Shown one piece after another: positions 6,144 to 30,728 of a stretch of DNA of 32,000 bases (the first letter of the stretch is position 1; every line of letters begins with the position of its first letter). Location of the stretch: the NCBI RefSeq assembly GCF_051097895.1, contig NZ_CP142525.1, forward strand, positions 240,001-272,000, written 5' to 3'. Under the pieces are notes generated by a model that did no database searches, was not told the origin of the DNA, and saw nothing but the letters and a program-made list of their open reading frames with translations. The stretch comes from Psychrobacter sp. HD31. GTDB lineage: Bacteria > Pseudomonadota > Gammaproteobacteria > Pseudomonadales > Moraxellaceae. The position numbers and the translations under genes are program-made.

Positions 6144-8600
6144 TTATAGGCTGGGTTTAGTTATCTCTTTCCGTTTTGCTTTAATTTCTTTATTAATCTC
6201 ATTGAATCTCTGAATTTCTTCATTTAGATTATCCAGACTTGGTTTTTTGACAGAGTATTTATCGCTATGAGAATGTCCTTCCATATATCTACAGCACTGA
6301 TAAAAACTGTCAAGAACCTTATCTTTTAATTCGTCATTAAATATCACAGCACCTAAACTATCAACACTTACTCTTTCTTTAAATCTCTGGACAACTCCAT
6401 TAAATAAACCAAATACAACAAGAGCTTCGTAACTCGTTCTTAGTGCCGCAAAACCACTTTTTATTTTATCTTCTCTAACTTTAGGTGGCAAATTCTTCGC
6501 TTCAGTGTAGTAAGCTTGAGCTTTACCTGAATTTTTGTATGCTTTTTCAAATGAAGGAGTATTATTTAACCAAATTTTACCTGGTTGACTGCCGTTTATG
6601 TTTTCAATCCAATGGCATTGCTTGGAAATTTTTAAATCCTCACAATGGGAGAATAAAGAAGAAACGAAAACCAAATCGTGTGTGAAAACTACAACTTGTT
6701 TTTGTGACGATTCTATTACAAGTCGTTCTGCAATTTCACTCTTTCGTTTCTCATCCAATGATGTAACAGGGTCGTCAAAAACTATCCTTCTGTTTACTTC
6801 CGATAACTGCATTTCTGCAAGAAAATCTGCAATCGCAATTACCTTTTGCTCTCCCTCACTTAAAACGATATTTGGATTTGTTCCTTTTAACTTAAGCTGC
6901 CTATATGATTTACCTGCCGAACCTGTATGATTGATGTCAATCCCAAAGTTTCCGTTAAGTTTCCGACATTCATCATTAAATATATCTATGTATTTTTGAT
7001 TGAAATACTTATTAGATAAAGTTTTTTCAGTATCTGTAATTGTACGTTTTGCAAAGTTAGCTTCCGTTGCTTTTTTAAGCCAAACCTGATTATCAACATA
7101 GGTTTCAAACTTTGAAAAATGGGTATTGAACTTTTTTTTGTGTTCTAAAAACGTTTTTTCTTTTAGTAATCTAGCCAACTGCTTTGTCTGCTTATCTTCT
7201 CTAATAATCTTTATGGATTCATCAATAGCCGTTTCAATATTGGTGTGTTGTATTGTACTGACTTTTATTTCATCTCTTTCGTTTTCTGTTTTGTTTTGAA
7301 TGTCGGAAACAATGTTTTGAGCAAGTGCTTTCTGTTCTGACAGTTTTTTCTTTAATTCTTCTAACTCATTAGGGTATTTTTCGGTCAGCCAAACAGTAAG
7401 TGTGTTGTCTTGAGGAAACAGGTCAAAGTTTAGTTGTTCAAACAATTGCTTTACCTTTTCGAGTGCTTCTTTTGCTTTCTTTGCATTTTCTTCGGCTACA
7501 CTCTTAATAAACTGCCAATAATTGGTAATCAATTTTTCGGCATCTTCTGAAAGTGGTTGCTGACATAATATGCAGTTATCTCCATTTTCGGGATAGGCTT
7601 CATTTGCAGACTTCTGTTTTTTGGCAAACGCTTTGGCTGCTAGGATAAAATCTTTCCATTCTTCTGTTCCTATTCCTTCAATTTGATCTGTTTTAAAGTT
7701 TTCAACTCCTTCAAATTTGGCTGTTGCAGCTTTTGCAATGCAGTCCGTAATTGCATCTTTGATTGTTGTCAGATAGTTTCTTTCAAAATATTTATTTAAA
7801 TTTTCTATTGAACTTTTGTTTTTGCCTAATTGCCTTTTGATTGCTTCAAGGTTCTTCAAATCTTTCTCTTTTCCTTTTGAAGCTAAAAGAAGCTCATCAT
7901 ATTGTTTCTGAATTTTTTCTTTTTCAACTTCATCTTCATCAGAATAAGGAGTGTGTTTTTTCAGGTCTTCAATGTTTGTTTGAGAATTTAGGTTCTGAAC
8001 AATATTTTTAATTTCTGATTCGCCATCAAATAAAGAAGAAAGGTCGTCTGCTGTGTTTACTGATTTTTTAGTTGCAATGTCGATATTTAGTTTTTTTTCA
8101 ACTCGAATGATGGCATTTGTATATTCGGCAAAGAAACTTAGTCCTGCTGGACGGAACTCAAATTCATTTCTCTCGGCAAGTTGCTTGAATAGCCCTTTTC
8201 CATCAAAAACTGCAAACTGACCAAACTCTGCATTATCTTTTTGTGAGTAGGATAACGGAATGTCTGCATTATTGGATTTGAAAGTGAATTTTGCGTTTAC
8301 GGGTTTGTGTCCGTTTTCAAGATGTATATTCTGTAAAATATCTTCTGGTGCTTTGGAGTAGAAGGTTTTTTTTAACAACCTGATATATCCTGATTTTCCC
8401 GAGCCGTTTGCACCGTATATAATAGTAAGGTTTGGATTAAAATCAATGGTTTGATTTTTTATTAAGGCGTTTACACCTTCCACATTTTCAAGTTTTGAAA
8501 GAAGTAAATCAGGTTTGTAATTATCTGCATTTTCTGAATTGTAGTTGATTGTTATTTCTGGTTTTTCTGTTGCTTCTTTTAATTCCAGTTTCTCAAGCAA
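6144..8600 (-). CDS. AAA_13-family ABC/SMC-like ATPase, RloC/PrrC-like candidate anticodon nuclease (818 aa as tracked from TTG)
   Basis: Walker A is GANGSGKSG (about 8388-8414). A long Lys/Glu-rich coiled coil carries CILCQQP (about 7563-7574). ABC signature is LSEGEQKVIAIADFLAE, Walker B is IVFDDPVTSLD, H-loop is VVFTHD. The C-terminal roughly 110 aa has LRTSYE (R-x3-E, 6426-6440) and MEGHSHSD (6265-6285). G+C is about 33%, versus about 40-45% in the flanks. Confidence 0.8.
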   Translation of the reverse strand: MLEKLELKEATEKPEITINYNSENADNYKPDLLLSKLENVEGVNALIKNQTIDFNPNLTIIYGANGSGKSGYIRLLKKTFYSKAPEDILQNIHLENGHKPVNAKFTFKSNNADIPLSYSQKDNAEFGQFAVFDGKGLFKQLAERNEFEFRPAGLSFFAEYTNAIIRVEKKLNIDIATKKSVNTADDLSSLFDGESEIKNIVQNLNSQTNIEDLKKHTPYSDEDEVEKEKIQKQYDELLLASKGKEKDLKNLEAIKRQLGKNKSSIENLNKYFERNYLTTIKDAITDCIAKAATAKFEGVENFKTDQIEGIGTEEWKDFILAAKAFAKKQKSANEAYPENGDNCILCQQPLSEDAEKLITNYWQFIKSVAEENAKKAKEALEKVKQLFEQLNFDLFPQDNTLTVWLTEKYPNELEELKKKLSEQKALAQNIVSDIQNKTENERDEIKVSTIQHTNIETAIDESIKIIREDKQTKQLARLLKEKTFLEHKKKFNTHFSKFETYVDNQVWLKKATEANFAKRTITDTEKTLSNKYFNQKYIDIFNDECRKLNGNFGIDINHTGSAGKSYRQLKLKGTNPNIVLSEGEQKVIAIADFLAEMQLSEVNRRIVFDDPVTSLDEKRKSEIAERLVIESSQKQVVVFTHDLVFVSSLFSHCEDLKISKQCHWIENINGSQPGKIWLNNTPSFEKAYKNSGKAQAYYTEAKNLPPKVREDKIKSGFAALRTSYEALVVFGLFNGVVQRFKERVSVDSLGAVIFNDELKDKVLDSFYQCCRYMEGHSHSDKYSVKKPSLDNLNEEIQRFNEINKEIKAKRKEITKPSL

Positions 8601-11531: not shown

Positions 11532-12449
11532 ATGGTTACCACCCAACATAAAGACCAAAACACGCAGCAAAGATCAGAATCCTTTGGTATTTTTTTAAAG
11601 ATACTATCAGTGCTTGCTTTTGCCATTATGGGTGGGTTAATTAAACATTTAGATGGCAGTATCCCACTTGGGCAGGTGGTGTTTTTCCGCTCTGCCGTTG
11701 CGCTCATTCCTTTAATGATATTTTTAATGTGGGTGAGTGACTTTCCCAGTGGGCTTAAAACTAAAAACCCGTGGGGGCATGTTACCCGCTGTGTTATTGG
11801 TACTTGTGCCATGTTTAGTGCCTTTAAGGTGTTAGAGCTATTACCCCTTGCTGAGGCAACGGCTTTAAATTACTTAAACCCGATTTTTTTGGTGGTGCTT
11901 GCCATGCTGTTTTTAAAGGAGCAGGTAAGCATTAGGCGTTGGCTTGGTGTTGGTTTTGGTATTGCAGGTTTGCTGTTAATTACTATCCCCAAGTTTAGTT
12001 TAGCGGCTTATGGCTCGCAAAGTATGTATGGTATTGGCTTGGGTGTGTTAACGGCTTTGCTAATTGCAGCAGCAATGCTACAGGTACGCCAGCTTACCCA
12101 AATGGGAGAAAACCCCGGAGCAATTACTTTTTATTTTGCGATTACCAGTACGGTTATGGGGGCAGTGGTTATGCTAGCCAGCATTAACAGTAATGGCATC
12201 TTGATGCCAGAGCCATGGCAATTGGCATGCTTAATTGGCATTGGTTTGATTGGTGGGCTTGCGCAAATATCGATGACACTTGCGTTTAAGTATGCGCAGG
12301 CATCGGCACTTGCACCGTTTGATTATTTGGCGATTGTGTTTTCGGTCATCATTGGGTTTGTGGCGTTTGATGAATTGCCAGACACCATGTTCTGGCTAGC
12401 CATGCCACTCATTTTATTAGGTGCAATGGTGGCAAGGGGCAGGGGTTAA
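11532..12449 (+). CDS. DMT-superfamily (EamA-like) permease
   Basis: 305 aa with about 10 hydrophobic helices in two halves. The ATG directly abuts the nspC TAA, suggesting translational coupling. Confidence 0.8.
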   Translation: MVTTQHKDQNTQQRSESFGIFLKILSVLAFAIMGGLIKHLDGSIPLGQVVFFRSAVALIPLMIFLMWVSDFPSGLKTKNPWGHVTRCVIGTCAMFSAFKVLELLPLAEATALNYLNPIFLVVLAMLFLKEQVSIRRWLGVGFGIAGLLLITIPKFSLAAYGSQSMYGIGLGVLTALLIAAAMLQVRQLTQMGENPGAITFYFAITSTVMGAVVMLASINSNGILMPEPWQLACLIGIGLIGGLAQISMTLAFKYAQASALAPFDYLAIVFSVIIGFVAFDELPDTMFWLAMPLILLGAMVARGRG

Positions 12450-13510
12450 ACATTTCTAAAGAGTTCATCGATTACTTTATTATCTATATTCTTAATAAAA
12501 TCCTTAGGGTTAGAGTGTCTTGATTTTAGATTATCTATTTCAGTTGTTTTTGCTCTAATAAAATAATTTTTCTTATTACTATTATCTATAGTAATAAAAT
12601 ATGACAATACAAAACTGTTCACATCAACATTAATATCACAAACCTCTATAAAAAAGTCATAACTATATTTCTCAATAGATTCTACGATATTGTATATGTC
12701 TTTATTTTCAAAATGGATATGTATAACAAAAAAAGCTTCTGTTTTATTATCGGGCATATTTATATAAATTGATTTAAAACTTTCAATTTCACGAGTTTCT
12801 CTTAGTTCCGTTCTTCCATTTTTAATTAAAGTTTCTTTCAGTATTTGATTTTCTTTATTGTAATCAACTGCCTTGTTATCTGTTATTGTAACTTCCGACT
12901 CTATTCTTGATTTATATTCTAGTTCTGTAAAACTAAAGTATTGAGGTATTGTTTTAATTAGTATTAATATACTAAAAGTAAAACATGTAATTGTAGAGAT
13001 ATAAACTTGATATTCATTTAGTTGGAAAAAATTATTAAAATGTAAAGGATATATGAATAGTAAATAAATAGTAGTAATAATTAGGATGTTAGAGATTAGA
13101 CCCAAGTTTGATATGTACCTGAAATATTTGAAGAAACGGTTTTTATATGGATTAAATTTTCTCGAATTAATGGTTACTATATAGCCTTTATGTGAATGAA
13201 AGTCTAAGAATTGTTTGGTAAATACTAAACCGAAGATAATGTGAATGAAAAATAATATATGAGAAGTGATGTTTGTATATAAAATAATCAGAGAAAAAAG
13301 AATATTGTATGCTAGGGTTAGAAAAATAAATCTGCTTTGCCTTACATAATACTTTAGAAACATGCTTCGACTATAATCGAATGAGCTAAATCCGCTTTGT
13401 AAGATAAAAGTGCTTGTAGCTACAATTAGACCAAGTACAGTTGCAGATAAGCTAAGTTGGTTTTCGAAATAATGGTTGTAGTTACTTAATTCTTTAAATA
13501 TATTAATCAT
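12446..13510 (-). CDS. orphan membrane protein: about 5 TM helices followed by a roughly 165-aa soluble C-terminal domain, no recognisable family
   Basis: 354-aa ORF. Sampled 60-nt stretches are 17-27% G+C, versus about 40% next door. Its TAA overlaps the TAA of the convergent EamA gene (ttaa at 12446-12449). Confidence 0.6.
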   Translation of the reverse strand: MINIFKELSNYNHYFENQLSLSATVLGLIVATSTFILQSGFSSFDYSRSMFLKYYVRQSRFIFLTLAYNILFSLIILYTNITSHILFFIHIIFGLVFTKQFLDFHSHKGYIVTINSRKFNPYKNRFFKYFRYISNLGLISNILIITTIYLLFIYPLHFNNFFQLNEYQVYISTITCFTFSILILIKTIPQYFSFTELEYKSRIESEVTITDNKAVDYNKENQILKETLIKNGRTELRETREIESFKSIYINMPDNKTEAFFVIHIHFENKDIYNIVESIEKYSYDFFIEVCDINVDVNSFVLSYFITIDNSNKKNYFIRAKTTEIDNLKSRHSNPKDFIKNIDNKVIDELFRNV

Positions 13511-19783: not shown

Positions 19784-21340
19784 CTAAGAGTCGGTACCAA
19801 ACTCTTTACGTTTACGAGCAAAGAATCGCTCTAATCTGTCCATGGCATCTTCTAACTCAAGTAAGTTTGGTAAGAACACAACCCTAAAGTGGTCAGGCTT
19901 ATCCCAGTTAAAACCTGTACCTTGGACAATGAGTACTTTTTCTTCTATCAATAAGTCCATCATAAACTCAGAGTCATTGGTAATGGGGTAAACATCTAAA
20001 TCAATTTTAGGGAAACAATAAAACGCCCCTTGTGGCATGGTACAACTAATGCCTTTAATTGCGTTAAGGCGGCTGACAGCGATTTCTCTTTGTTTGTATA
20101 AACGACCACCCTCATGGGTTAATTCCTTCATACTTTGGTAACCACCCAATGCGGTTTGGATGGTATGCTGAGCGGGTACATTGGCGCATAAACGCATCGA
20201 TGCTAAAATGGTTAAGCCTTCAATAAAGTCGGCTGCATGGTCTTTTTTGCCAGATAGCATCATCCAACCAGCACGGAATCCAGCAATACGGTGTGACTTA
20301 GACAAACCATTATAAGTGAGTACCAATACATCATCTGTTAGGGTACACATTGGTGTATGTACGGTATCATCATAAAGTACACGGTCATATATTTCATCCG
20401 CCATCAGTACTAAGTTGTGCTCTTTTGCCAGTTTAACAATTTGTAGCAGTATTTCTTTTGAGTATAAGGCACCCGTTGGGTTATTTGGGTTAATAACCAC
20501 AATACCTTTAGTTTTGTCGGTAATTTTTGCTTTGATGTCCTCAATATCTGGTTGCCAGTTATCCTCTTCATTACAGCGGTAGTGTACTGCCGTACCGCCT
20601 GCAAGATTGGTTGCTGCCGTCCAAAGTGGGTAGTCGGGCATTGGGATGAGTACTTCATCGCCATCATTGAGCATGGCTTGCATGGTCATGACGATTAGTT
20701 CGGACACGCCATTACCAAGATAAACATCACGGACATTAACGGCAGAACGTAACCCTTTAGACTGATAATACTGAAGCACTGCCTTGCGTGCTGAAAAAAT
20801 GCCTTGTGAATCAGAATACCCAGTTGCGTGGTGCAAGTTTAATGCAACATCTTGCAAAATTTCTTGTGGAGCATTTAAGCGGAATGGGGCAGGGTTGCCA
20901 ACATTGAGCTTAATGATACGATGCCCCTCAGCTTCCATTTTGGTGGCAGTTTTAAGTAAAGGACCACGGATGTCATAGCAAACATTTTGTAGTTTTTCAG
21001 ATTTATTAAGTGGTTTAACAGTGGGCATAGTTTTCGCCTCATTTGTAAGTATGTTGTGTGTGTGGTGATTGATTTTGTTGTCAGTTGTTTGATAACCATG
21101 GAGTAGATAATCAACGCTGCAATCTAAAATTTTTGCAAGGGTGGGTAATTTAGATGCCACAATACCATTGGTGCCTCGCTCCCAATTAGAAATTGCACCA
21201 CGGCTTACTTTAGCCCCTGCTTGTGTCATTTTTGTTGCAAGTTGCTCGGCTGTTAGCCCTTTTGCTTTACGTAGCTCAATTAGACGCTTTGCTTGTGCTA
21301 ATCGGTTGCTATCTTTAGAATTATTCATGCGTTTTCTCAT
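19784..21340 (-). CDS. alaA: XRE-type HTH domain fused in frame to an AlaA-type class-I aminotransferase (518 aa)
   Basis: Residues about 14-80 read LTAEQLATKM...VSRGAISNWERG (HTH_3-like). From about residue 113, SEKLQNVCYDIRGP...NVGNPAPF...NPNNPTG...GLSKSHRIAGFRAGW...RLCANVPAQH is collinear with E. coli AlaA as I remember it. Confidence 0.85.
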   Translation of the reverse strand: MRKRMNNSKDSNRLAQAKRLIELRKAKGLTAEQLATKMTQAGAKVSRGAISNWERGTNGIVASKLPTLAKILDCSVDYLLHGYQTTDNKINHHTHNILTNEAKTMPTVKPLNKSEKLQNVCYDIRGPLLKTATKMEAEGHRIIKLNVGNPAPFRLNAPQEILQDVALNLHHATGYSDSQGIFSARKAVLQYYQSKGLRSAVNVRDVYLGNGVSELIVMTMQAMLNDGDEVLIPMPDYPLWTAATNLAGGTAVHYRCNEEDNWQPDIEDIKAKITDKTKGIVVINPNNPTGALYSKEILLQIVKLAKEHNLVLMADEIYDRVLYDDTVHTPMCTLTDDVLVLTYNGLSKSHRIAGFRAGWMMLSGKKDHAADFIEGLTILASMRLCANVPAQHTIQTALGGYQSMKELTHEGGRLYKQREIAVSRLNAIKGISCTMPQGAFYCFPKIDLDVYPITNDSEFMMDLLIEEKVLIVQGTGFNWDKPDHFRVVFLPNLLELEDAMDRLERFFARKRKEFGTDS

Positions 21341-21938
21341 AAAAACAATATATGCAAGATTTTATTGCATTAAAGCCATTAACTCAATATTTTTTACAAA
21401 AAATTGCAAGAAAAACTTACATTTTTTAGTTAGGGTAGTTGTATCATGATTTGTTGACTCGGTATGTATTTTGATTTGCTTGCTGTGAGTAAAGCCAAGA
21501 AGTAGATTTGGATATTAAAATAAAGACAAATTGTGAAATATAAAATGGCGGATTTTTGCTAGATTAATTATGGCATGAGTTTGAAAATAGTGTAAAAAAG
21601 ACATATAAACGGCAATAATGAAAATCTATTGTTTTACTGCCAGTTTAATAACATGGTAAATAAACATAAAATAGCCAACAAATAAAAAGGCACTCGAAAG
21701 TGCCTTATTTGCAGTCGTTACCTGATAGTTTTAATTATTATTATCTTTTTTTATTATTACGACCTGAGTTTTATAATCCTTGTAAAAGCTTATAAAACTA
21801 AGATCCTCTGTAGCTATGATAACGCCATCTCATACGTTATCTTGGCTACATGGGCTACTATAATAAAGTAAAATTACAGAGTGATGACAATGGATGAATA
21901 TTTATCTTATAAATTTTATAAAAAAGTTAAAAAAATAA

Positions 21939-21966
21939 TTGACACAAATAATAAAATCTATATAAT
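21939..21966 (+). promoter_or_regulatory. sigma70-type promoter for the tRNA-Val/tRNA-Asp operon
   Basis: TTGACA (21939-21944), a 16-nt spacer, then TATAAT (21961-21966). An A/T-rich UP-like tract lies upstream and a GC-containing discriminator (acgctgc) follows. The tRNA starts about 50 nt downstream. Confidence 0.55.
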
Positions 21967-22017
21967 ACGCTGCACACAACGAGATAAGGCATTATTAATT
22001 AAGTGCTGTTTTGTTGA

Positions 22018-22093
22018 GGGTGATTAGCTCAGTTGGTAGAGCGTCTGCCTTACACGCAGAATGTCGGCGGTTCGAATCCGTCATCACCCACCA
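22018..22093 (+). tRNA. tRNA-Val(TAC): tRNA-Val (anticodon TAC)
   Basis: Folded by hand into a cloverleaf: acceptor GGGTGAT/ATCACCC, D arm GCTC..GAGC, anticodon stem TCTGC/GCAGA with loop CTTACAC, T arm GGCGG TTCGAAT CCGTC, encoded CCA. Confidence 0.95.
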
Positions 22094-22122: not shown

Positions 22123-22199
22123 GCAGCGGTAGTTCAGTTGGTTAGAATACCGGCCTGTCACGCCGGGGGTCGCGGGTTCGAGTCCCGTCCGCTGCGCCA
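22123..22199 (+). tRNA. tRNA-Asp(GTC): tRNA-Asp (anticodon GTC)
   Basis: Acceptor GCAGCGG/CCGCTGC, anticodon stem CCGGC/GCCGG with loop CTGTCAC, T arm GCGGG TTCGAGT CCCGT, encoded CCA. Near-identical to E. coli tRNA-Asp. Confidence 0.95.
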
Positions 22200-22240
22200 T
22201 TATTTATGGCAACATAAGTACAACTTATTATACAAGTTTC

Positions 22241-22274
22241 ACCTCACATCCCCCCTGATGTGAGGTTTTTTTTG
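22241..22274 (+). terminator. rho-independent terminator of the tRNA operon
   Basis: acctcacatc (22241-22250), a 6-nt loop, gatgtgaggt (22257-22266), then a T8 run. Confidence 0.8.
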
Positions 22275-23069
22275 TTTAGATATATATGTTAATTTCTCGA
22301 AAATAAAAAAGAACGCTATAAACGTTCTTTTTTAGTATCAGCTAACAAGTCAATAGACAGCTAAAATATATTGTTATTTTAGTTGATTGACTTGCTCGAC
22401 GGTGCCAACCTTGGCAGTGCTTGATAAGCGTGCTGGATTACCATGGTTTTCTATTGGCTTTTTATCACTGGTATAATAGGGGGTTTTAGGTGCGATAAAG
22501 GCAACTGGCTTCTTATGATTGGGTACAGTGAGTGTCACCGGCGTATCGATTGTTACCCCACCACCTAACACTTGGTACAATTGAACTTGGCTCATTGCCT
22601 TCGCTTTTTCAAGATTTAAAATACTCTGTTGGCTACTAAACTCTGAGCGTTGTGCATCTAAAACTGATAAATAACTGTCTAAACCTGCTTTATAACGAGC
22701 ATCCGCAATGGTATACATCTGTTGAAAGTTATCTTGCAATCTATACTGTGTTTCTAAACGTTCTTCTAATGTTGCACGTGCTGCCAAAACATCTGCAACT
22801 TCTTTAAAAGCGGCTTGAATACTTTTTTCATAGCCTGTTAAGGCTTGTTTGCGTGCAATTTGTGCAACTTGATAATTTGCATCTAGCTGACCTGCATCAA
22901 ACAAAGGAACACTGATAGATGGCCCAAAAGACCAACCAAATGCAGATGTTTTAAATAGCTGTTTTAGGTTGGTGCTAGAATAGCCCATACGCCCAGTTAA
23001 GCTGATTGAAGGAAAATAATTTGCACGGGCTACGGCGATATTTGCCCCAGCGGCTTTTAGTTTGTATTC
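22258..23069. repeat. left copy of the direct repeat: 3' half of the tRNA terminator, a 24-nt copy-specific patch, the OMF terminator, and the last 696 nt of the OMF gene
   Basis: 22299-23069 aligns base for base with 29958-30728 at offset 7659, with mismatches only at 22316 and 22570. 22258-22274 (atgtgaggttttttttg) equals 29914-29930. Confidence 0.95.
22374..23069 (-). pseudogene. 5'-truncated duplicate of the efflux outer-membrane-factor gene (C-terminal 231 codons)
   Basis: The frame is open from the repeat edge at 23069 to the stop at 22374. The product is identical to the C-terminus of the 550-aa OMF except for one residue (V versus A). No start or promoter context exists upstream of 23069. 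Confidence 0.9.
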
Positions 23070-23130
23070 GTTGAAATTAGAAATACTATATTATGCTTAG
23101 TTTGTATAAGGTATTGGATGGGATACTTAT

Positions 23131-24411
23131 CTATTGCGCCATACAAGCATGAACACGTAAAAAATCTGCCGAATTACCTAGCAAACTTCCTTTTTTCTGT
23201 TCAATTAAAATTTGATCAGAAAGCTCACGAAATGCACCAAATCCCCCCTTAGTATCTAGTATTACATCTGCCTTTTCTTTAATGTAACTTGGAGAATCAG
23301 CAACTGCAACAGAAATACCACAATTATCAAATGCAGGTAAGTCTATGCTATCATCACCAATATAAACAGTATTTGCTTTAATAGTATTTGCTTTTGCTAT
23401 TATTTCTTTACAAGCGGTTTCTTTATCTTTAATACCAAGAGCAAAAATTTCAATTCCTAAGTCTGCAATACGTTTTCTGAGCGGCTTAGAGTCTCTACCC
23501 GACAATACAGCAACTTTAATACCAGACTCCTGTAGTAATTTAATTCCTAGACCATCACGAACATGAAAACGTTTTAAGGCTTCACCATTTTCGTCATAAT
23601 AAAGTCCCCCATCAGTTAGTACACCATCAATATCAGTGATAACCAAATCAACGTCAGCAAATGTAATAATTTTACTTTGTTGTTGTTCCTTGCCTTCTAT
23701 GATAGAAATAACTTTTTCTAAATCTTCTGGGGTGTCAACACCTGGTCCTGTTTTTGCAACATCAAAAACATAAATAGAAACATCACTATTTAATAGTCTA
23801 AGTTGTTCTAATTTTTCAATATCTTCGATTCTAGAGCTATGCAAAGATTGATATTCTGCTAAGATAGATTTACGATAAGCATACACGCCGACATGTTGTT
23901 TATACTTAACTGATATGGATTCATCACGTGGATAAGGGATAGGAGAACGGCTGAAATAACAAGCACGGTTAGAGCTTGACGTGACTACCTTTACTGTATT
24001 AGGGTTTTTTGCTTCCGTAGCTGAAATATGATGACACATTGTACTAACGCCAATGCTAGGATTTTCTGACATCTTTCTGATTAACATATTAAGATCAGAT
24101 GGTCTTACTAAAGGCTCATCTCCTTGTAAATTAATATATAAGTCAGCATCAACTTTCGTCATTACTTCAACTAGTCTATCGGTTCCAGAAGTGTGGGCTG
24201 TGTCTGTCATGACGACAGTACCACCAAAGTTCTGTACAGCATTAAAAACTCTTTTATCATCAGTTGCGACCACTACTTGGGCATTAGGAACCTGCAAAGC
24301 CTTTTCATAAACATGCTGAATCATAGGTTTGCCTAAAATATCTGCTAATGGCTTACCTGGAAAGCGAGAGGACGCAAAGCGTGCTGGAATGATAATTGCA
24401 ACAGAATTCAT
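23131..24411 (-). CDS. kdsB: bifunctional CMP-Kdo synthetase (KdsB/KpsU) fused to Kdo-8-phosphate phosphatase (KdsC)
   Basis: The N-terminal half reads IIPARFASSRFPGKPLADILGKPMIQHV...NLQGDEPL (KdsB motifs). The C-terminal roughly 175 aa reads VITDIDGVLTDGGLYY...VAVLSGRDS...IGDDSIDLP (HAD-IIIA, KdsC-like). Confidence 0.85.
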   Translation of the reverse strand: MNSVAIIIPARFASSRFPGKPLADILGKPMIQHVYEKALQVPNAQVVVATDDKRVFNAVQNFGGTVVMTDTAHTSGTDRLVEVMTKVDADLYINLQGDEPLVRPSDLNMLIRKMSENPSIGVSTMCHHISATEAKNPNTVKVVTSSSNRACYFSRSPIPYPRDESISVKYKQHVGVYAYRKSILAEYQSLHSSRIEDIEKLEQLRLLNSDVSIYVFDVAKTGPGVDTPEDLEKVISIIEGKEQQQSKIITFADVDLVITDIDGVLTDGGLYYDENGEALKRFHVRDGLGIKLLQESGIKVAVLSGRDSKPLRKRIADLGIEIFALGIKDKETACKEIIAKANTIKANTVYIGDDSIDLPAFDNCGISVAVADSPSYIKEKADVILDTKGGFGAFRELSDQILIEQKKGSLLGNSADFLRVHACMAQ

Positions 24412-24427
24412 ATAGAAACCTTTTTAA

Positions 24428-25282
<855 letters not shown>

Positions 25283-25295
25283 TTATAAAATTTTA

Positions 25296-26264
25296 TTAGC
25301 TAATGCCTGCTTGCATCAAATCTCTTAATGCCATAACCCCAACAAGATTTCCTTCATCATCCATAACCAATAATTGATTGACTTTTTTCTCTCGCATAAC
25401 ATTGAGTGCCTCTACAGCCATCGTATTTTCTGTAGTAGACATGGGTTGAGTCTTCATAACGCTTGAAATTGGTGCTTCCATATCATGTCTTGATGAAATT
25501 AACCGACGTACATCACCATCAGTTAATACGCCATAAGTACCTGAGTCAAAAACAACCGTCATACCTAAACGTTTTGCCGTAATCTCAAATAAAGAGTCCA
25601 AAATACTCGTTGTTCCGTCAACTAAAGGAACATCATCCGATGTTTTCATTAAATCGGCAACAGTCGTAAGTAACTTTTTACCTAATGAGCCTGCTGGATG
25701 AGATAATGCAAAGTCTTCCGACTTAAAGCCTCTTGCCTCAAGTAATGCAACAGCCAATGTATCACCAAGTACCATAGTAGCTGTAGTACTTGAGGTGGGT
25801 GCCAACCCCATTGGACAAGCCTCTTCAAACGCGCCTAAGGTTAAGGCAATATCAGCCTCTTTAGATAAGCGCCCTAATAAATTTTTAGTAATACTGATTA
25901 ATGGAATATCCAGTTTTTTAATAACGGGCAATAATAAGTTAATTTCATCACTATTACCCGAATTAGAAATAGCTAATACAACATCGCCTTGCACAATCAT
26001 GCCTAAATCACCGTGTCCTGCTTCTGCTGGGTGTACAAAAAAGGCTGGTGTTCCCGTTGATGCCATCGTTGCTGCAATTTTTCTGCCTACCAATCCTGAC
26101 TTGCCCATACCAGTAACAATTAATCGACCTTTACAATTTAAAATAGTATCGCATGCAAAGATAAATCTTTCATCTAACTCCATTTGCATTAGAGTTAATG
26201 CTTTTTTTTCAATTTTAATTGTACGAAGGGCACTTTCTAAGTAACTACTTTTCTTAATATTCAT
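25296..26264 (-). CDS. kpsF: arabinose-5-phosphate isomerase (KpsF/GutQ/KdsD family)
   Basis: SIS domain (TGMGKSGLVGRKIAATMASTGTPAFFVHPAEAGHGDLG) followed by two CBS repeats. 322 aa. Confidence 0.9.
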   Translation of the reverse strand: MNIKKSSYLESALRTIKIEKKALTLMQMELDERFIFACDTILNCKGRLIVTGMGKSGLVGRKIAATMASTGTPAFFVHPAEAGHGDLGMIVQGDVVLAISNSGNSDEINLLLPVIKKLDIPLISITKNLLGRLSKEADIALTLGAFEEACPMGLAPTSSTTATMVLGDTLAVALLEARGFKSEDFALSHPAGSLGKKLLTTVADLMKTSDDVPLVDGTTSILDSLFEITAKRLGMTVVFDSGTYGVLTDGDVRRLISSRHDMEAPISSVMKTQPMSTTENTMAVEALNVMREKKVNQLLVMDDEGNLVGVMALRDLMQAGIS

Positions 26265-26332
26265 TACACGACTTCTACTTATGCTAATAAATAACTTTTA
26301 ATAGGATTTGATTTTTATATACAACTTTTATA

Positions 26333-29300
26333 CTAAGTTTCCATAAAAATATTATTTGTACTAAAATGCTTCTCATCTACCTTGATAAACATATGACTTA
26401 CAAATTCCTGCATTGATGTGTCGATATCTGATTGCACATATAAAATATTTTCTTTTAAGAAGACAGCTTTATTTATCTCTAGCATTTTGTAGTTAGGTCC
26501 TTCTATGATTAAATCTTCAAGATAATTTTCTATTTGATTTAGATCATCGCAAAATAATGATAAGTTTTTTAATTGTTTCTTATCTTCGTCTGTTGGTATA
26601 AGACATACGGTACTTGTTGAGTCTAAAACACTAGATTGATATAGTTGGTTTGTACACATTCCCAGGATGATAGTAGAACTAAATAAAAATTTCTCATCCG
26701 ACTTTTTACTACCAACAAACTTTACATCAATGGTTTGATCAAAACATTGTTTAAGACGGTTTATGAAGTCATGCTTGAACTTGTAATCTATATTTATAAC
26801 AACTGACCCTCCTAATTCTTTAATTACCTTGTTAATGCTTTTGGCGATAGTCAGCACAATAGTCCGCGATAACCCATGAGTTAGTAACATGACTGTTTTT
26901 TTCTTCATATCACTGACTTTATTAGTATGATGTGAAATCATATTATTAGTAGGGGAGATACCTGTAGTCATTTGCTTAAGTCCAGTTAACCTGTATCGTG
27001 ATTTTTCGTTATTATCAATCCAAGCAATAGAAGGTGGTAGCTCAATGCTTAATAAATTTGACAGATTATTTTCTTTAGAAGACTGAATAATTGATGAGTT
27101 ATTACCTGTATCGTGACTAACTTTATATAGTAGTTGAGCAGTAGTTGATTCATGATCTATAAAAACAACTTTTTTGTTGTTTTGTAATAAATGTTTAAAA
27201 CTTGCTAATGTAAAAAAAATATGAAATATATCTTTGCTATATTTGATAATGTTTTTTTCAAGTATTTGAATCAGTGCTTTTGGAAGCTTTTTATTCAAAT
27301 CTGACAAAAGTATTGTTGAAAAATATTTAATGAATTGAGGACGGTACGCATAGTAGGAGGAATATGAATACTTTGAATCATTGATTTGTTGATTTAAAAT
27401 ATCACAATTATCAGGTAATTCAGATTTTAGTAGATCATACTCATTTTTTTGATCGTTAATTACCTCTTCATTTAAAAGTAATGTAGCATTTGTACTGAAC
27501 AATGGACTTTGACTAAGTAGTCTTTTAACTAACGTGATTGATGCATCATCTGGCGATAAGCAAACAACAATGCCTTCTTGATTGTAAGAGGGTTGGGTTG
27601 GTTGGTTCAAGGTTATATCGTACCAGAATTTAGCAAATAAACGTTTTTCTTCTGGTATATCAAATGGCTGAGTTAAATCTGTTTTTAATTTTGGTTTTAT
27701 GCCTTTTCGGGCAACATCTCTGCTCAGCTTCTGATTTTTTAGTGCAATATTAATTTTACCTTCAAAATCTAAAACGTTGGCATGATGACATAAACAGTAA
27801 AATAAGTCTTGTATAGAAGAGAGGTCATCGGCATAGATAAAAATTGTATCGTATTCTTCTATGATGCTTTTAGCCGTATTATAAATTTGATATAAGAATA
27901 ATATCTCTTGTTCTATACCTTTAGCTATTATTCTAAGGTAAGTGTCGGGAATCAATTGTTCAGACACATATGACTTTAAAGTGTGTAGTATGGTGTTTGA
28001 AATGGTCTGTAGGTCTGGTGTTGTCTTATTTAACTGACTAAACCAATCTAATGCTGAATTATCTTCAAATGAATAAAGATTGATTGAATTAAGATACTCA
28101 AATGGGACAACAACCTCATTTGATACAGGCGTTATTGTGTCGTGATAAAAAATATCTACTTTTTTTGTATTGTGATTAGTAAGATCACAAGCAAACTCCA
28201 TGGCGTCACTACTATCAGAAATAACAGCTAGTTTTTTGCTACTTGATTTTTTATGATACAGTAAGTCTAACGGGTGAGTGGTAGCTAAATTATAAATTTT
28301 TCGGGTTTGTTGGCTATCAAATAACTCAAGGTTTTGGTTTTGCCTAATAATGCCATCTAAGTAAACTAATGAATCATTTAGATTCGATTTTCTCTTGGTG
28401 TCATTAATACGGTATCTTGGATATAAAATATAAGCTGCAGCAAAAACCTCTAATAAACTTAATTCCCTTTGCCTTCTATCTACATGTTGTCTATCATCTG
28501 TTAATCCCCAACCAGAATAAAAAGGAGCACCCAGAGTTGTAACTGGCACACCATTTATTAATGATTCAAAGCCACCTAAAGAAGTGATTGTATAGACCCT
28601 ATCTACACCGGTTAATGCATCAAACATAGACATATTAGTATGATAAACTTCAACATCTATATCTGTATTTAAAGAATCAGAAATTTCTTTTCTTTTGCCT
28701 TTAAGTACATCGGGGTGTGGTTTGAAGATAACTTGTGCGTTAGGGTTTTCACGAATTGCGATTTTAATTAGCTCTAAATTGGTAATAATTTCTTGGCAAC
28801 CAAATAAAACAGACTGATCGTCTTCTACTTGCCCTAGAACTAAGATTCTTTTTCTAGTTTTTTTACCATATAAACTTTCTGCAATATTATTTTGTGTATG
28901 GTTGTACTTATTAATTTTATTTTTCTTAATAAAGTTAATTGCTTCTTCTGCTTGTTTCATAAGCTCATAATCGGCATCAAAACTATAATGATTTAATATG
29001 TTTTCTAAATCAGATGGAAGAGAAGAGTCGTAGTAAAATCCAGTTTTATCAAGGCATAAAGATACAGGTGCAACTTTATCTGCCCCTAACCCAACAGAAC
29101 GAATAAAACCATCTTCTATATGGTAGATATTGATATTGTTTTCTATAGCGTAAGCAGAAATATTTTGGGGGACTTTTCTGCCCCACATGATAAAACAAAC
29201 TTTGGGCAAAAAGTTAATGACTTTATTATATCGATTTAAATCAGCATTTAGTGACAGGTAGATTAACCTATATTCGGGTAAAAACTGTCTTACATATTCT

Positions 29301-29530
29301 CGTTTCCATTGGGAAACATTAAAAACAAATGCTATGGGTTTTGTAACGTTTATATCTTTTATTATTTTATTTACTTTTGTAATATCATGGTTAATAGATT
29401 GTCGAAATGATTCAACATCTTCTAATAAACCTAAAGCACCCTTTTTTTTAACAGTTAGATATGAACTTTTACTTTTAGCTGACGTTACTTGTAGGAATTT
29501 TTTACTAAATCGACGAATAGGTAATTGCAT
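26333..29530 (-). CDS. 1065-aa multidomain protein: N-terminal KpsC/KpsS-type (Capsule_synth) beta-Kdo transferase domain plus a roughly 650-aa C-terminal region of unknown family; candidate Kdo-polysaccharide synthase
   Basis: Residues about 90-400 carry [61 protein letters not shown] and LYPRY, the motif order I recall from KpsC/KpsS/LipA/LipB. I see no motif I recognise in the rest. G+C is about 28-35%. It is the first gene of the operon. Confidence 0.7.
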   Translation of the reverse strand: [1065 protein letters not shown]

Positions 29531-29913
29531 ATAAATTATATCTCATTAATTAACACTATCTATCTATTAAACATTGTAAATATGACGCTATTGTTAATAA
29601 TATATGAAATATTTATGACTAAAATAAAAAAACTACTATTGAGTTAGCAAGAGAAATTATTTGCAATAACAAACTCTTGTATAGTTTAGGTATGATAATA
29701 TTTAAATAGTGAGACTTAGGGCTTTGTACTGCTTGGTTGAAGCTACCTTCTACAATTACTACTTGCTGTTGAGTCAAACGTTTGTGTTAGCTTTTGTTGA
29801 AAATAAATTTATGAATTGACGAATTATGAAATTAAAGAATGAATAGTAAAGTATGATTAATACTATCAATAGGATATTATGATTAAGTCGTATTAATACA
29901 AATTTTCTTTCTT

Positions 29914-30728
29914 ATGTGAGGTTTTTTTTGGTCAAAAAACAACTATTTTTTCTACTAGAAAATAAAAAAGAACGTTATAAACGTTCTTTTTTAGTATCAG
30001 CTAACAAGTCAATAGACAGCTAAAATATATTGTTATTTTAGTTGATTGACTTGCTCGACGGTGCCAACCTTGGCAGTGCTTGATAAGCGTGCTGGATTAC
30101 CATGGTTTTCTATTGGCTTTTTATCACTGGTATAATAGGGGGTTTTAGGTGCGATAAAGGCAACTGGCTTCTTATGATTGGGTACAGTGAGTGTCACCGG
30201 CGTATCGATTGTTACCCCACCACCTAACGCTTGGTACAATTGAACTTGGCTCATTGCCTTCGCTTTTTCAAGATTTAAAATACTCTGTTGGCTACTAAAC
30301 TCTGAGCGTTGTGCATCTAAAACTGATAAATAACTGTCTAAACCTGCTTTATAACGAGCATCCGCAATGGTATACATCTGTTGAAAGTTATCTTGCAATC
30401 TATACTGTGTTTCTAAACGTTCTTCTAATGTTGCACGTGCTGCCAAAACATCTGCAACTTCTTTAAAAGCGGCTTGAATACTTTTTTCATAGCCTGTTAA
30501 GGCTTGTTTGCGTGCAATTTGTGCAACTTGATAATTTGCATCTAGCTGACCTGCATCAAACAAAGGAACACTGATAGATGGCCCAAAAGACCAACCAAAT
30601 GCAGATGTTTTAAATAGCTGTTTTAGGTTGGTGCTAGAATAGCCCATACGCCCAGTTAAGCTGATTGAAGGAAAATAATTTGCACGGGCTACGGCGATAT
30701 TTGCCCCAGCGGCTTTTAGTTTGTATTC
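29914..30728. repeat. right copy of the direct repeat (part of the intact OMF gene and its terminator)
   Basis: See the left copy. The copy-specific patch here is 27 nt (29931-29957), versus 24 nt (22275-22298) on the left. Confidence 0.95.
29964..29992. terminator. bidirectional terminator downstream of the OMF gene; a degenerate copy lies at 22305-22333
   Basis: aaaaaagaacgtt ata aacgttctttttt is a perfect 13-bp stem. The left copy has c instead of t at 22316, which breaks one base pair. Confidence 0.7.

Follow-up and report, generated by a model that had tools for sequence, protein, structure and literature searches.

The subject of this report is a block of four genes related to 3-deoxy-D-manno-oct-2-ulosonic acid (Kdo) in a 32-kb stretch of DNA from Psychrobacter sp. 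HD31 (the whole stretch is called the window, and coordinates are positions in the window unless a contig of a relative is named). The block lies between a tRNA-Asp gene and the gene for an outer-membrane channel (OMF), and it is bracketed by two direct repeats, each made up of the last part of the OMF gene and the sequence that follows it. The features of this interval are listed in Table 1.

Table 1. Features between the tRNA genes and the OMF gene in the Psychrobacter sp. HD31 window
Feature	Coordinates	Strand	Basis or remark
tRNA-Val (TAC)	22018..22093	+	ARAGORN; Rfam RF00005
tRNA-Asp (GTC), one intact copy	22123..22199	+	ARAGORN; Rfam
tRNA-Asp terminator, complete	22241..22274	+	Hairpin with 10-bp stem (22241-22266), then T8
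Spacer, 24 nt, empty-site type	22275..22298	.	21/24 positions match the relative L002
Left direct repeat	22299..23069	-	OMF terminator and truncated OMF 3' fragment (22374-23069)
Novel joint (23069/23070) and 61 nt of AT-rich DNA 3' of kdsB-kdsC	23070..23130	-	
kdsB-kdsC fusion (CMP-Kdo synthetase and Kdo-8-P phosphatase), 426 aa	23131..24411	-	Pfam, NCBIfam; CTP_transf_3 and HAD domains
kdsA, Kdo-8-phosphate synthase, 281 aa	24428..25273	-	NCBIfam NF009109, 509 bits, exceeds cut-off
kpsF/kdsD-type arabinose-5-phosphate isomerase, 322 aa	25296..26264	-	TIGR00393, 332 bits; SIS and CBS domains
Multidomain glycosyltransferase, 1065 aa	26333..29530	-	PF05159 Capsule_synth domain
AT-rich upstream region of the cassette	29531..29913	-	Promoter-like site 29562-29535
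Orphan 3' half of tRNA-Asp terminator hairpin	29914..29930	+	Break at hairpin loop
Spacer', 27 nt	29931..29957	.	No relation to the 24-nt left spacer
Right direct repeat	29958..30728	-	OMF terminator and final 696 nt of the intact OMF gene
Intact AdeK-like outer-membrane channel (OMF) gene, 550 aa	30033..31685	-	NCBIfam AdeK/NodT

Genes, repeats and joints at the locus

All four cassette genes were intact and co-oriented on the minus strand. The guanine-plus-cytosine (G+C) content of the unique insert was 32.9%, versus 38.6% in the left backbone and 41-44% in the adjacent housekeeping genes, and the G+C content at third codon positions (GC3) was 0.21-0.27 in the insert versus 0.30-0.40 outside. 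The open reading frames (ORFs) at 22200-30000 were all assigned to kds, glycosyltransferase or OMF functions, and no integrase, transposase, recombinase or replication gene was found among them. The 427 nt upstream of the cassette genes (29531-29957; 24% G+C) were searched for gene remnants, Rfam families and the ops element, and none was found. As judged from the sequence, the cassette operon would be transcribed from its own AT-rich upstream region and would end at the duplicated OMF terminator.

The direct repeats were defined by base-by-base comparison of the window with itself: 771 nt in each copy, 2 mismatches, and an offset of 7659. Outside this pair, the similarity falls to the random level at both ends. 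A repeat finder recovered part of the pair. The mismatches are C at 22316 versus T at 29975, and A at 22570 versus G at 30229. Each copy is composed of the final 696 nt of the OMF gene (codons 320-550) and 75 nt 3' of the gene, with the first 41 nt of the repeat being the OMF terminator (at 29993-29963 in the right copy and at about 22304-22334 in the left copy). The duplicated portion of the OMF gene begins precisely at codon 320, and the stop codon of the intact gene is at 30033-30035. The OMF gene is the last gene of a resistance-nodulation-division (RND) efflux operon, for which the order membrane fusion protein (MFP)-RND-OMF was seen in the relative L002 (see below). In the left copy, the start codon is absent at the joint and an internal ATG opens a 204-aa ORF (22374-22988); this truncated fragment is a probable pseudogene remnant.

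The homology is not confined to the 771 nt. The 17-mer ATGTGAGGTTTTTTTTG occurs in the window only at 22258-22274, where it is the 3' half of the tRNA-Asp terminator, and at 29914-29930 (chance expectation, 0.03; none of 100 shuffles gave 2 matches). The half hairpin at 29914..29930 is without its partner arm and folds into no hairpin. When it is included, the duplicated target stretch amounts to 815 bp, with the loop of the tRNA-Asp hairpin at one end and OMF codon 320 at the other; the repeat period is 7659 bp, and the unique DNA between the repeats is 6,888 bp. The right joint (29913/29914) sits at the loop of a strong GC-rich 10-bp hairpin, and this loop is a plausible site of breakage or template switching. 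Two further candidates concerning this hairpin were rejected. One was a dispersed repeat, since the hairpin sequence was found in only 2 places in the window; the other was an extension of the homology past the 17-nt half hairpin toward the tRNA region, where the local alignments were comparable to those of shuffles and AT-rich controls (p about 0.12-0.17). The 27-nt spacer' occurs once in the window and gave no match in the fetched loci or in the metagenome contigs of the Joint Genome Institute (JGI), and the OMF terminator gave no match in the JGI metagenome contigs either. At the opposite end of the cassette, the 61-nt stretch at 23070..23130 has a counterpart in the Psychrobacter locus L010, a 59-nt intergenic region ahead of galU.

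Much of this architecture had been described in an earlier note made from the sequence. Its collinear 771-nt repeats with 2 mismatches and an offset of 7659 were reproduced by the self-comparison; its description of the repeat as the OMF terminator plus the last 696 nt of the OMF gene agrees with the position of the stop codon; and the identity that it reported between 22258-22274 and 29914-29930 was confirmed, with the 17-mer found nowhere else in the window. Pfam, NCBIfam and the G+C values bear out its four co-oriented low-G+C genes (kpsF, kdsA, kdsB-kdsC and a 1065-aa transferase), and the domain searches of the ORFs at 22200-30000 gave no integrase or transposase between the copies, as it had stated. 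The "7.66-kb cassette" of the note holds as the repeat period but not as the size of the insert.

That the arrangement is an assembly artefact, in which a separate molecule, or a repeat that had been collapsed or expanded, was misplaced in the chromosome, is very improbable: although there is a single assembly, the flanks on the two sides are distinct, the copies have 2 internal differences and different spacers, the genes are intact, the joints are unique, and the source contig is 2.17 Mb in length.

Empty sites in relatives and the probable arrival of the block

Contigs of relatives were reached through homologues of the OMF gene; those used below are L002 (Logan SRR33677536), L005 (Logan SRR29889423), L003 (a contig of a metagenome-assembled genome (MAG), GCA_002754885.1) and L004. 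L002 has 96.8-99% nucleotide identity to the window. In this contig, the order from a full-length OMF gene onward is OMF terminator, 24-nt spacer and tRNA-Asp hairpin, at which the contig stops; the left flank in the window has exactly this order. In L003 and L004 (OMF, 89% amino-acid identity), the OMF gene is likewise followed by the hairpin; L003, which lacks the cassette, extends past the hairpin into the spacer that adjoins tRNA-Asp in the window. The tRNA-Asp terminator hairpin is found 3' of the OMF gene in L002, L003 and L004, and the empty site that had been predicted in the earlier note, with OMF next to the tRNA-Asp terminator, was found in L002 and L003. Note that, at the contig end of L003 (11790-11841), the final approximately 10 bases deviate from the tRNA-Asp 3' end seen in the window, which may reflect a contig-end error or another neighbouring gene. 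As for the L005 contig (1,798 bp, with a 99%-identical OMF), it stops in the loop of the OMF terminator, one base short of an inter-copy difference, and this end may be a branch between two terminator/spacer variants in the sample. L013 and L014 (OMF, 75% identical) were unusable as an outgroup, with a differing downstream context, and L001 (a Psychrobacter MAG; OMF, 62% identical) was not syntenic, had no tRNAs and was uninformative.

Both repeat copies share 23-24 differences from L002 and 17 from L005, yet they differ from each other at 2 of 771 positions. Given the divergence among the strains, such near identity means that the duplication is young or that the copies were homogenised by gene conversion. 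At 22570, the left (truncated) copy alone has a state seen in neither L002 nor L005 (Ala to Val), and at 29975, within the terminator loop, the right copy differs from L002; two differences in 771 nt with one private change per copy fit a recent duplication. Recombination between the 771-bp repeats would restore a perfect empty site, and for this reason presence and absence alone give no direction of change. It is nevertheless scarcely credible that the arrangement is ancestral and that the empty sites of the relatives arose by precise repeat-mediated deletion, because the repeats are 0.26% apart versus 1-3% (L002 and L005) and 14% (L003) between HD31 and the empty-site lineages, the truncated copy has not decayed, and the cassette proteins have no relative of at least 90% identity in other assemblies.

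The divergence between HD31 and L002 was 2.98% in the duplicated segment versus 0.94% in the non-duplicated 1,272 nt to its right. Sites at which L002 and L005 agree against HD31 numbered 11/753 in the duplicated segment versus 3/1045 outside (approximately 5 times denser; Fisher p = 0.006), and the divergent tract may reach beyond the repeat to 30819. The end of the gene is also somewhat more variable between the relatives (L002 versus L005: 2.3% in the OMF 3' end and 1.6% in the flank), and the polarisation of the HD31-specific sites with L003 was mixed. Both copies appear, from these small counts, to carry an allele with a history unlike that of the adjacent backbone, a pattern that would point to an allele acquired from a sibling strain and then homogenised, or to acquisition of the entire pre-formed structure. 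In the latter case, the truncated copy, cassette, half hairpin, spacer' and OMF 3' end would together have been formed in an unsampled sibling and brought in by a double crossover (e.g., by natural transformation), with one crossover in the terminator/3' end of the left copy and the other in the part of the OMF gene that lies on the right-hand side of the repeat. The allele shared by both copies and its excess divergence argue for this course, as does the outer end of the left copy, where the mismatch at 22316 is 18 nt from the spacer and both are L002-like, their counterparts in the right copy being spacer' and the other base. It is still an unlikely one: the counts are small, the OMF 3' end is somewhat more variable in any case, the L003 polarisation is mixed, no donor was found, and the origin of the joints is merely moved to the donor.

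Two characters of a Campbell-type insertion-duplication were found at the locus: the repeats correspond to one contiguous target segment, and in the relatives L002 and L003 this segment is single-copy between the same outer flanks. After the insertion, the OMF gene is still intact, as is the tRNA-Asp terminator, and the neighbouring units keep their terminators. On balance, we favour a recent, integrase-free, duplicative insertion by homologous recombination between tRNA-Asp and OMF in the HD31 lineage as the probable origin of the arrangement. The cassette would already have been joined to an OMF 3' fragment on the incoming DNA molecule, and this molecule would have recombined with the chromosome, either as a circle by a single crossover or in an ends-in or interchromatid event during natural transformation, with duplication of the 815 bp from the hairpin loop to codon 320. 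Illegitimate recombination would have generated the two novel joints (OMF codon 320 to cassette, and cassette to hairpin loop); this probably took place in a sibling strain having the alternative 27-nt spacer. The differing spacers and the difference at 22316 fit an incoming molecule with its own spacer allele.

The joints and spacers also bear on a one-step course by template switching or double illegitimate recombination, in which replication or repair would stall or break at the tRNA-Asp hairpin, the foreign cassette would be copied, and re-entry would take place 815 bp back in the OMF gene, with no circle or homologous crossover. The position of the right joint exactly at the loop of a strong hairpin is what such an event would give; so are the near identity of the copies and a duplicated stretch that resembles an 815-bp target duplication. 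However, both repeats would then be copied from one chromosome and their spacers should match, whereas the 24-nt and 27-nt spacers are unrelated, and one flank would have had to undergo allelic replacement afterwards. We regard this course as unlikely.

Several points weigh against the duplicative insertion by homologous recombination as well. A reciprocal single crossover predicts a split of donor and recipient alleles between the copies, and both copies share one allele; this requires gene conversion, a donor from within the lineage, or entry of the complete pre-formed structure. With only 2 inter-copy differences, a reciprocal mosaic is fitted by the spacer and 22316 at the outer end alone. 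The 27-nt spacer beside the right copy is non-homologous to the 24-nt left spacer. No donor, circular form, plasmid or phage relative, or second occupied genome was found, and the cassette proteins were singletons at 90% identity. The case rests on one genome and one assembly. In addition, as for a capsule as the product, none of kpsM, kpsT, kpsE, kpsD and kpsS was found in the cassette or in the 32-kb window, so that, with no export genes in the cassette, "capsule" is a presumptive label.

With respect to the earlier note, its view that this is not a site-specific integration at a tRNA gene is upheld: the locus has no integrase, tRNA-Asp occurs as one intact copy, the repeats begin 100 nt 3' of it, and the joint in the terminator hairpin is about 60 nt 3' of it. 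Its proposal of a Campbell-type integration or a duplication-associated capture stands as far as the insertion-duplication footprint is concerned, but a simple crossover leaves the 27-nt spacer and the shared allele unexplained, and the data do not discriminate between Campbell integration and other duplicative routes. A plasmid or phage origin was also considered and rejected; the plasmids gave only generic matches to kdsA and the KpsC domain at 70% identity or less, and the viral contigs gave nothing.

Neither the footprint nor the gene families nor the cassette type is of a new kind. The locus resembles the Campbell insertion-duplication obtained with non-replicating plasmids that carry a gene fragment, in that the target segment is duplicated around the insert, one copy is truncated, the gene remains intact, the event should be RecA-reversible, and the empty site is single-copy; it differs in that the HD31 insert has no vector or replicon functions, that there is an additional 17-nt homology past a non-homologous spacer, and that the copies are of the same allele. 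The cap locus of Haemophilus influenzae type b, flanked by IS1016, reportedly amplifies and deletes. Like that locus, the HD31 block has polysaccharide genes between long direct repeats that permit, in HD31 by prediction, a RecA-dependent change of copy number or loss; unlike it, the repeats come from part of a host gene (OMF) instead of insertion sequences (ISs), and there are no export genes and no transposase. Psychrobacter is reportedly naturally transformable. The favoured HD31 event would be similar to homology-facilitated illegitimate recombination and to merodiploid formation, integrase-free processes in which DNA of partial homology, once taken up, gives rise to duplications or to the insertion of foreign DNA in competent bacteria; however, the usual outcome of homology-facilitated illegitimate recombination is that recipient DNA is replaced or deleted, and in HD31 the anchor is duplicated. 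Transformation is known to create duplications; unlike the HD31 structure, the merodiploids that have been described extend over 100-900 kb and are tandem duplications between IS repeats (Johnston et al. 2013, PMC3784515). Finally, a nearby tRNA and a low G+C content are shared with tRNA-associated islands that carry tyrosine integrases, but the HD31 locus has no integrase and its repeats are not the tRNA 3' end.

If the favoured insertion took place, a complete sugar-biosynthesis block was gained at a new chromosomal site without mobile-element machinery, with an empty site verified in a near relative. Through the 771-bp direct repeats, RecA could plausibly delete the cassette precisely or amplify it, and the locus is usable for testing a recombination-driven on/off or dosage change of a Kdo surface glycan in a transformable genus. 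A bolder reading, which we hold to be speculative and improbable, is that the Kdo block is an integrase-free mobile unit with the captured 3' end of a host gene as a "handle", spread between strains by transformation, inserting with no harm to the gene on either side and acting as a RecA-controlled on/off or amplifying switch for a surface polysaccharide. If true, competent Moraxellaceae would have a general way of moving capsule or serotype modules that has been overlooked.

The native Psychrobacter Kdo locus and the cassette proteins

The closest relatives of the KdsB-KdsC protein were the same fusion in other Psychrobacter, with 67-70% amino-acid identity. The gene order of HD31 (glycosyltransferase-kpsF-kdsA-kdsBC) is identical in L011 (P. 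immobilis), L008 (Psychrobacter sp. AOP22-C1-22) and L010, and the nucleotide identity of the kds genes between the window and these native loci was 71-73%. In L011 and L008, sucCD is on one side of the block and a convergent kpsS-like gene on the other, the latter being a 326-aa Capsule_synth gene that is followed by galU-pgi-ugd; in L010, galU comes directly after the block. The HD31 cassette is, as judged from gene order and identity, a Kdo block of the kind native to the genus, placed at a different site: it is like the sucCD-kpsS/galU locus in gene order, in its kds genes and in a G+C content below that of the flanks, and unlike it in its position by tRNA-Asp and OMF, in having no adjacent kpsS-like gene, and in being bracketed by the 771-bp repeats. 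In the native loci, the G+C content was 35-41% for the kds genes and 30-32% for the glycosyltransferase gene, with 45-47% in the flanks of L008 (there were no flanking genes for L010). Since the native Psychrobacter loci dip likewise, low G+C is weak evidence for a recent foreign origin, and it was rejected as proof of one.

No export genes were found within the 10-kb flanks of the Psychrobacter Kdo loci. Remnants of IS630-family transposase genes were seen between sucD and the Capsule_synth gene of strain AOP22-C1-22 (L008, 1771-3870; L009, 261-1147), which indicates that the variable end of the native locus was rearranged by other means in other strains. Among 5.8 billion clusters, neither the 1065-aa protein nor the KdsB-KdsC fusion had a relative of at least 90% identity outside HD31. 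Exact-protein look-ups of the 1065-aa protein, the OMF and an aminotransferase of the window (see below) returned no record, and a literature search on strain HD31 found nothing.

Residues 68-391 of the 1065-aa protein are a KpsC-type (GT107) retaining beta-Kdo transferase module, as shown by matches to PDB 6MGD and 6MGB (E about 1e-54; 1.4e-54 for 6MGD). An AlphaFold model of the protein (mean predicted local distance difference test score (pLDDT), 70) was compared with known structures by Foldseek, and the target-normalised TM-scores (TMt) against the KpsC structures 6MGB, 6MGC, 6MGD and 8FUW were 0.77-0.81. The QXXXD motif, which holds the catalytic nucleophile of KpsC (for the motif definition, see PMC10148158), corresponds to Q234-D238, and the HP motif to H272-P273; both are invariant across 27 aligned full-length homologues. 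The protein has thus the sequence, the fold and the QXXXD and HP motifs of a GT107 KpsC module.

The remaining part of approximately 670 aa (residues ~400-1065) has a GT-B-like fold with weak matches to polysialyltransferase, UDP-GlcNAc 2-epimerases and WaaA, and the C-terminal 685 aa matched no Pfam family up to E = 10. Within residues about 800-1000, the motifs GIQPQ, KPHPxQE, SDTY and GLFSSVLLE of the family are missing in HD31, and the same motifs are partly lost in the P. immobilis orthologue P0120 and in P0113. This suggests that the C-terminal domain may be catalytically dead or repurposed, at least in P0120, of which the locus encodes only Kdo synthesis. The family of roughly 1060 aa in which a KpsC-like module is fused to a GT-B-like domain is flagged by these data, and its C-terminal domain appears, as far as the motifs tell, to be catalytically degenerate in those Psychrobacter loci whose genes are limited to Kdo synthesis. 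The HD31 glycosyltransferase and its P. immobilis counterpart are 34% identical. In Acinetobacter, full-length homologues (~33% identity) sit in kpsM-kpsT-kpsE-kpsD capsule loci with nonulosonic-acid genes, a context that ties the protein family to capsules dependent on ATP-binding cassette (ABC) transporters.

The presence of kpsF, kds genes and a KpsC-type module is shared with the group 2 kps loci of Escherichia coli, which have dedicated kpsF and kdsB (kpsU) paralogues and a KpsC-family retaining beta-Kdo transferase (PMC10148158). Unlike those loci, the HD31 cassette is without kpsM/T/E/D/S, and its one presumably active Kdo module is joined to an apparently degenerate GT-B-like domain. 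The cassette would raise the supply of CMP-Kdo, and its single intact beta-Kdo transferase module, which is presumably active, would use this dedicated pathway to extend a Kdo-based glycolipid or polysaccharide, such as a poly-Kdo chain. KpsS-type initiation and export would then have to come from elsewhere in the HD31 genome.

Other features of the window

The tRNA pair is preceded by an AT-rich intergenic region of 0.7 kb (21341-22017; about 27% G+C), in which a perfect sigma-70 match, TTGACA-16-TATAAT, was found ahead of tRNA-Val at 21939-21966. On the other side of this region, the minus strand at 19784-21340 encodes a 518-aa class I/II aminotransferase, alanine-aminotransferase-like, with an N-terminal XRE-type helix-turn-helix (HTH) at residues 18-84.

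An 818-aa AAA/SMC-like ATPase is encoded at 6144-8600 (minus strand) in a stretch of 32-34% G+C, and it matched the PADLOC candidate defence family PDC-S06 (E = 1.7e-123); this region is probably another accessory islet. Finally, a 354-aa ORF of 24.8% G+C without Pfam or PADLOC match is located at 12446-13510 (minus strand), between an EamA transporter gene and a saccharopine-dehydrogenase-like gene.

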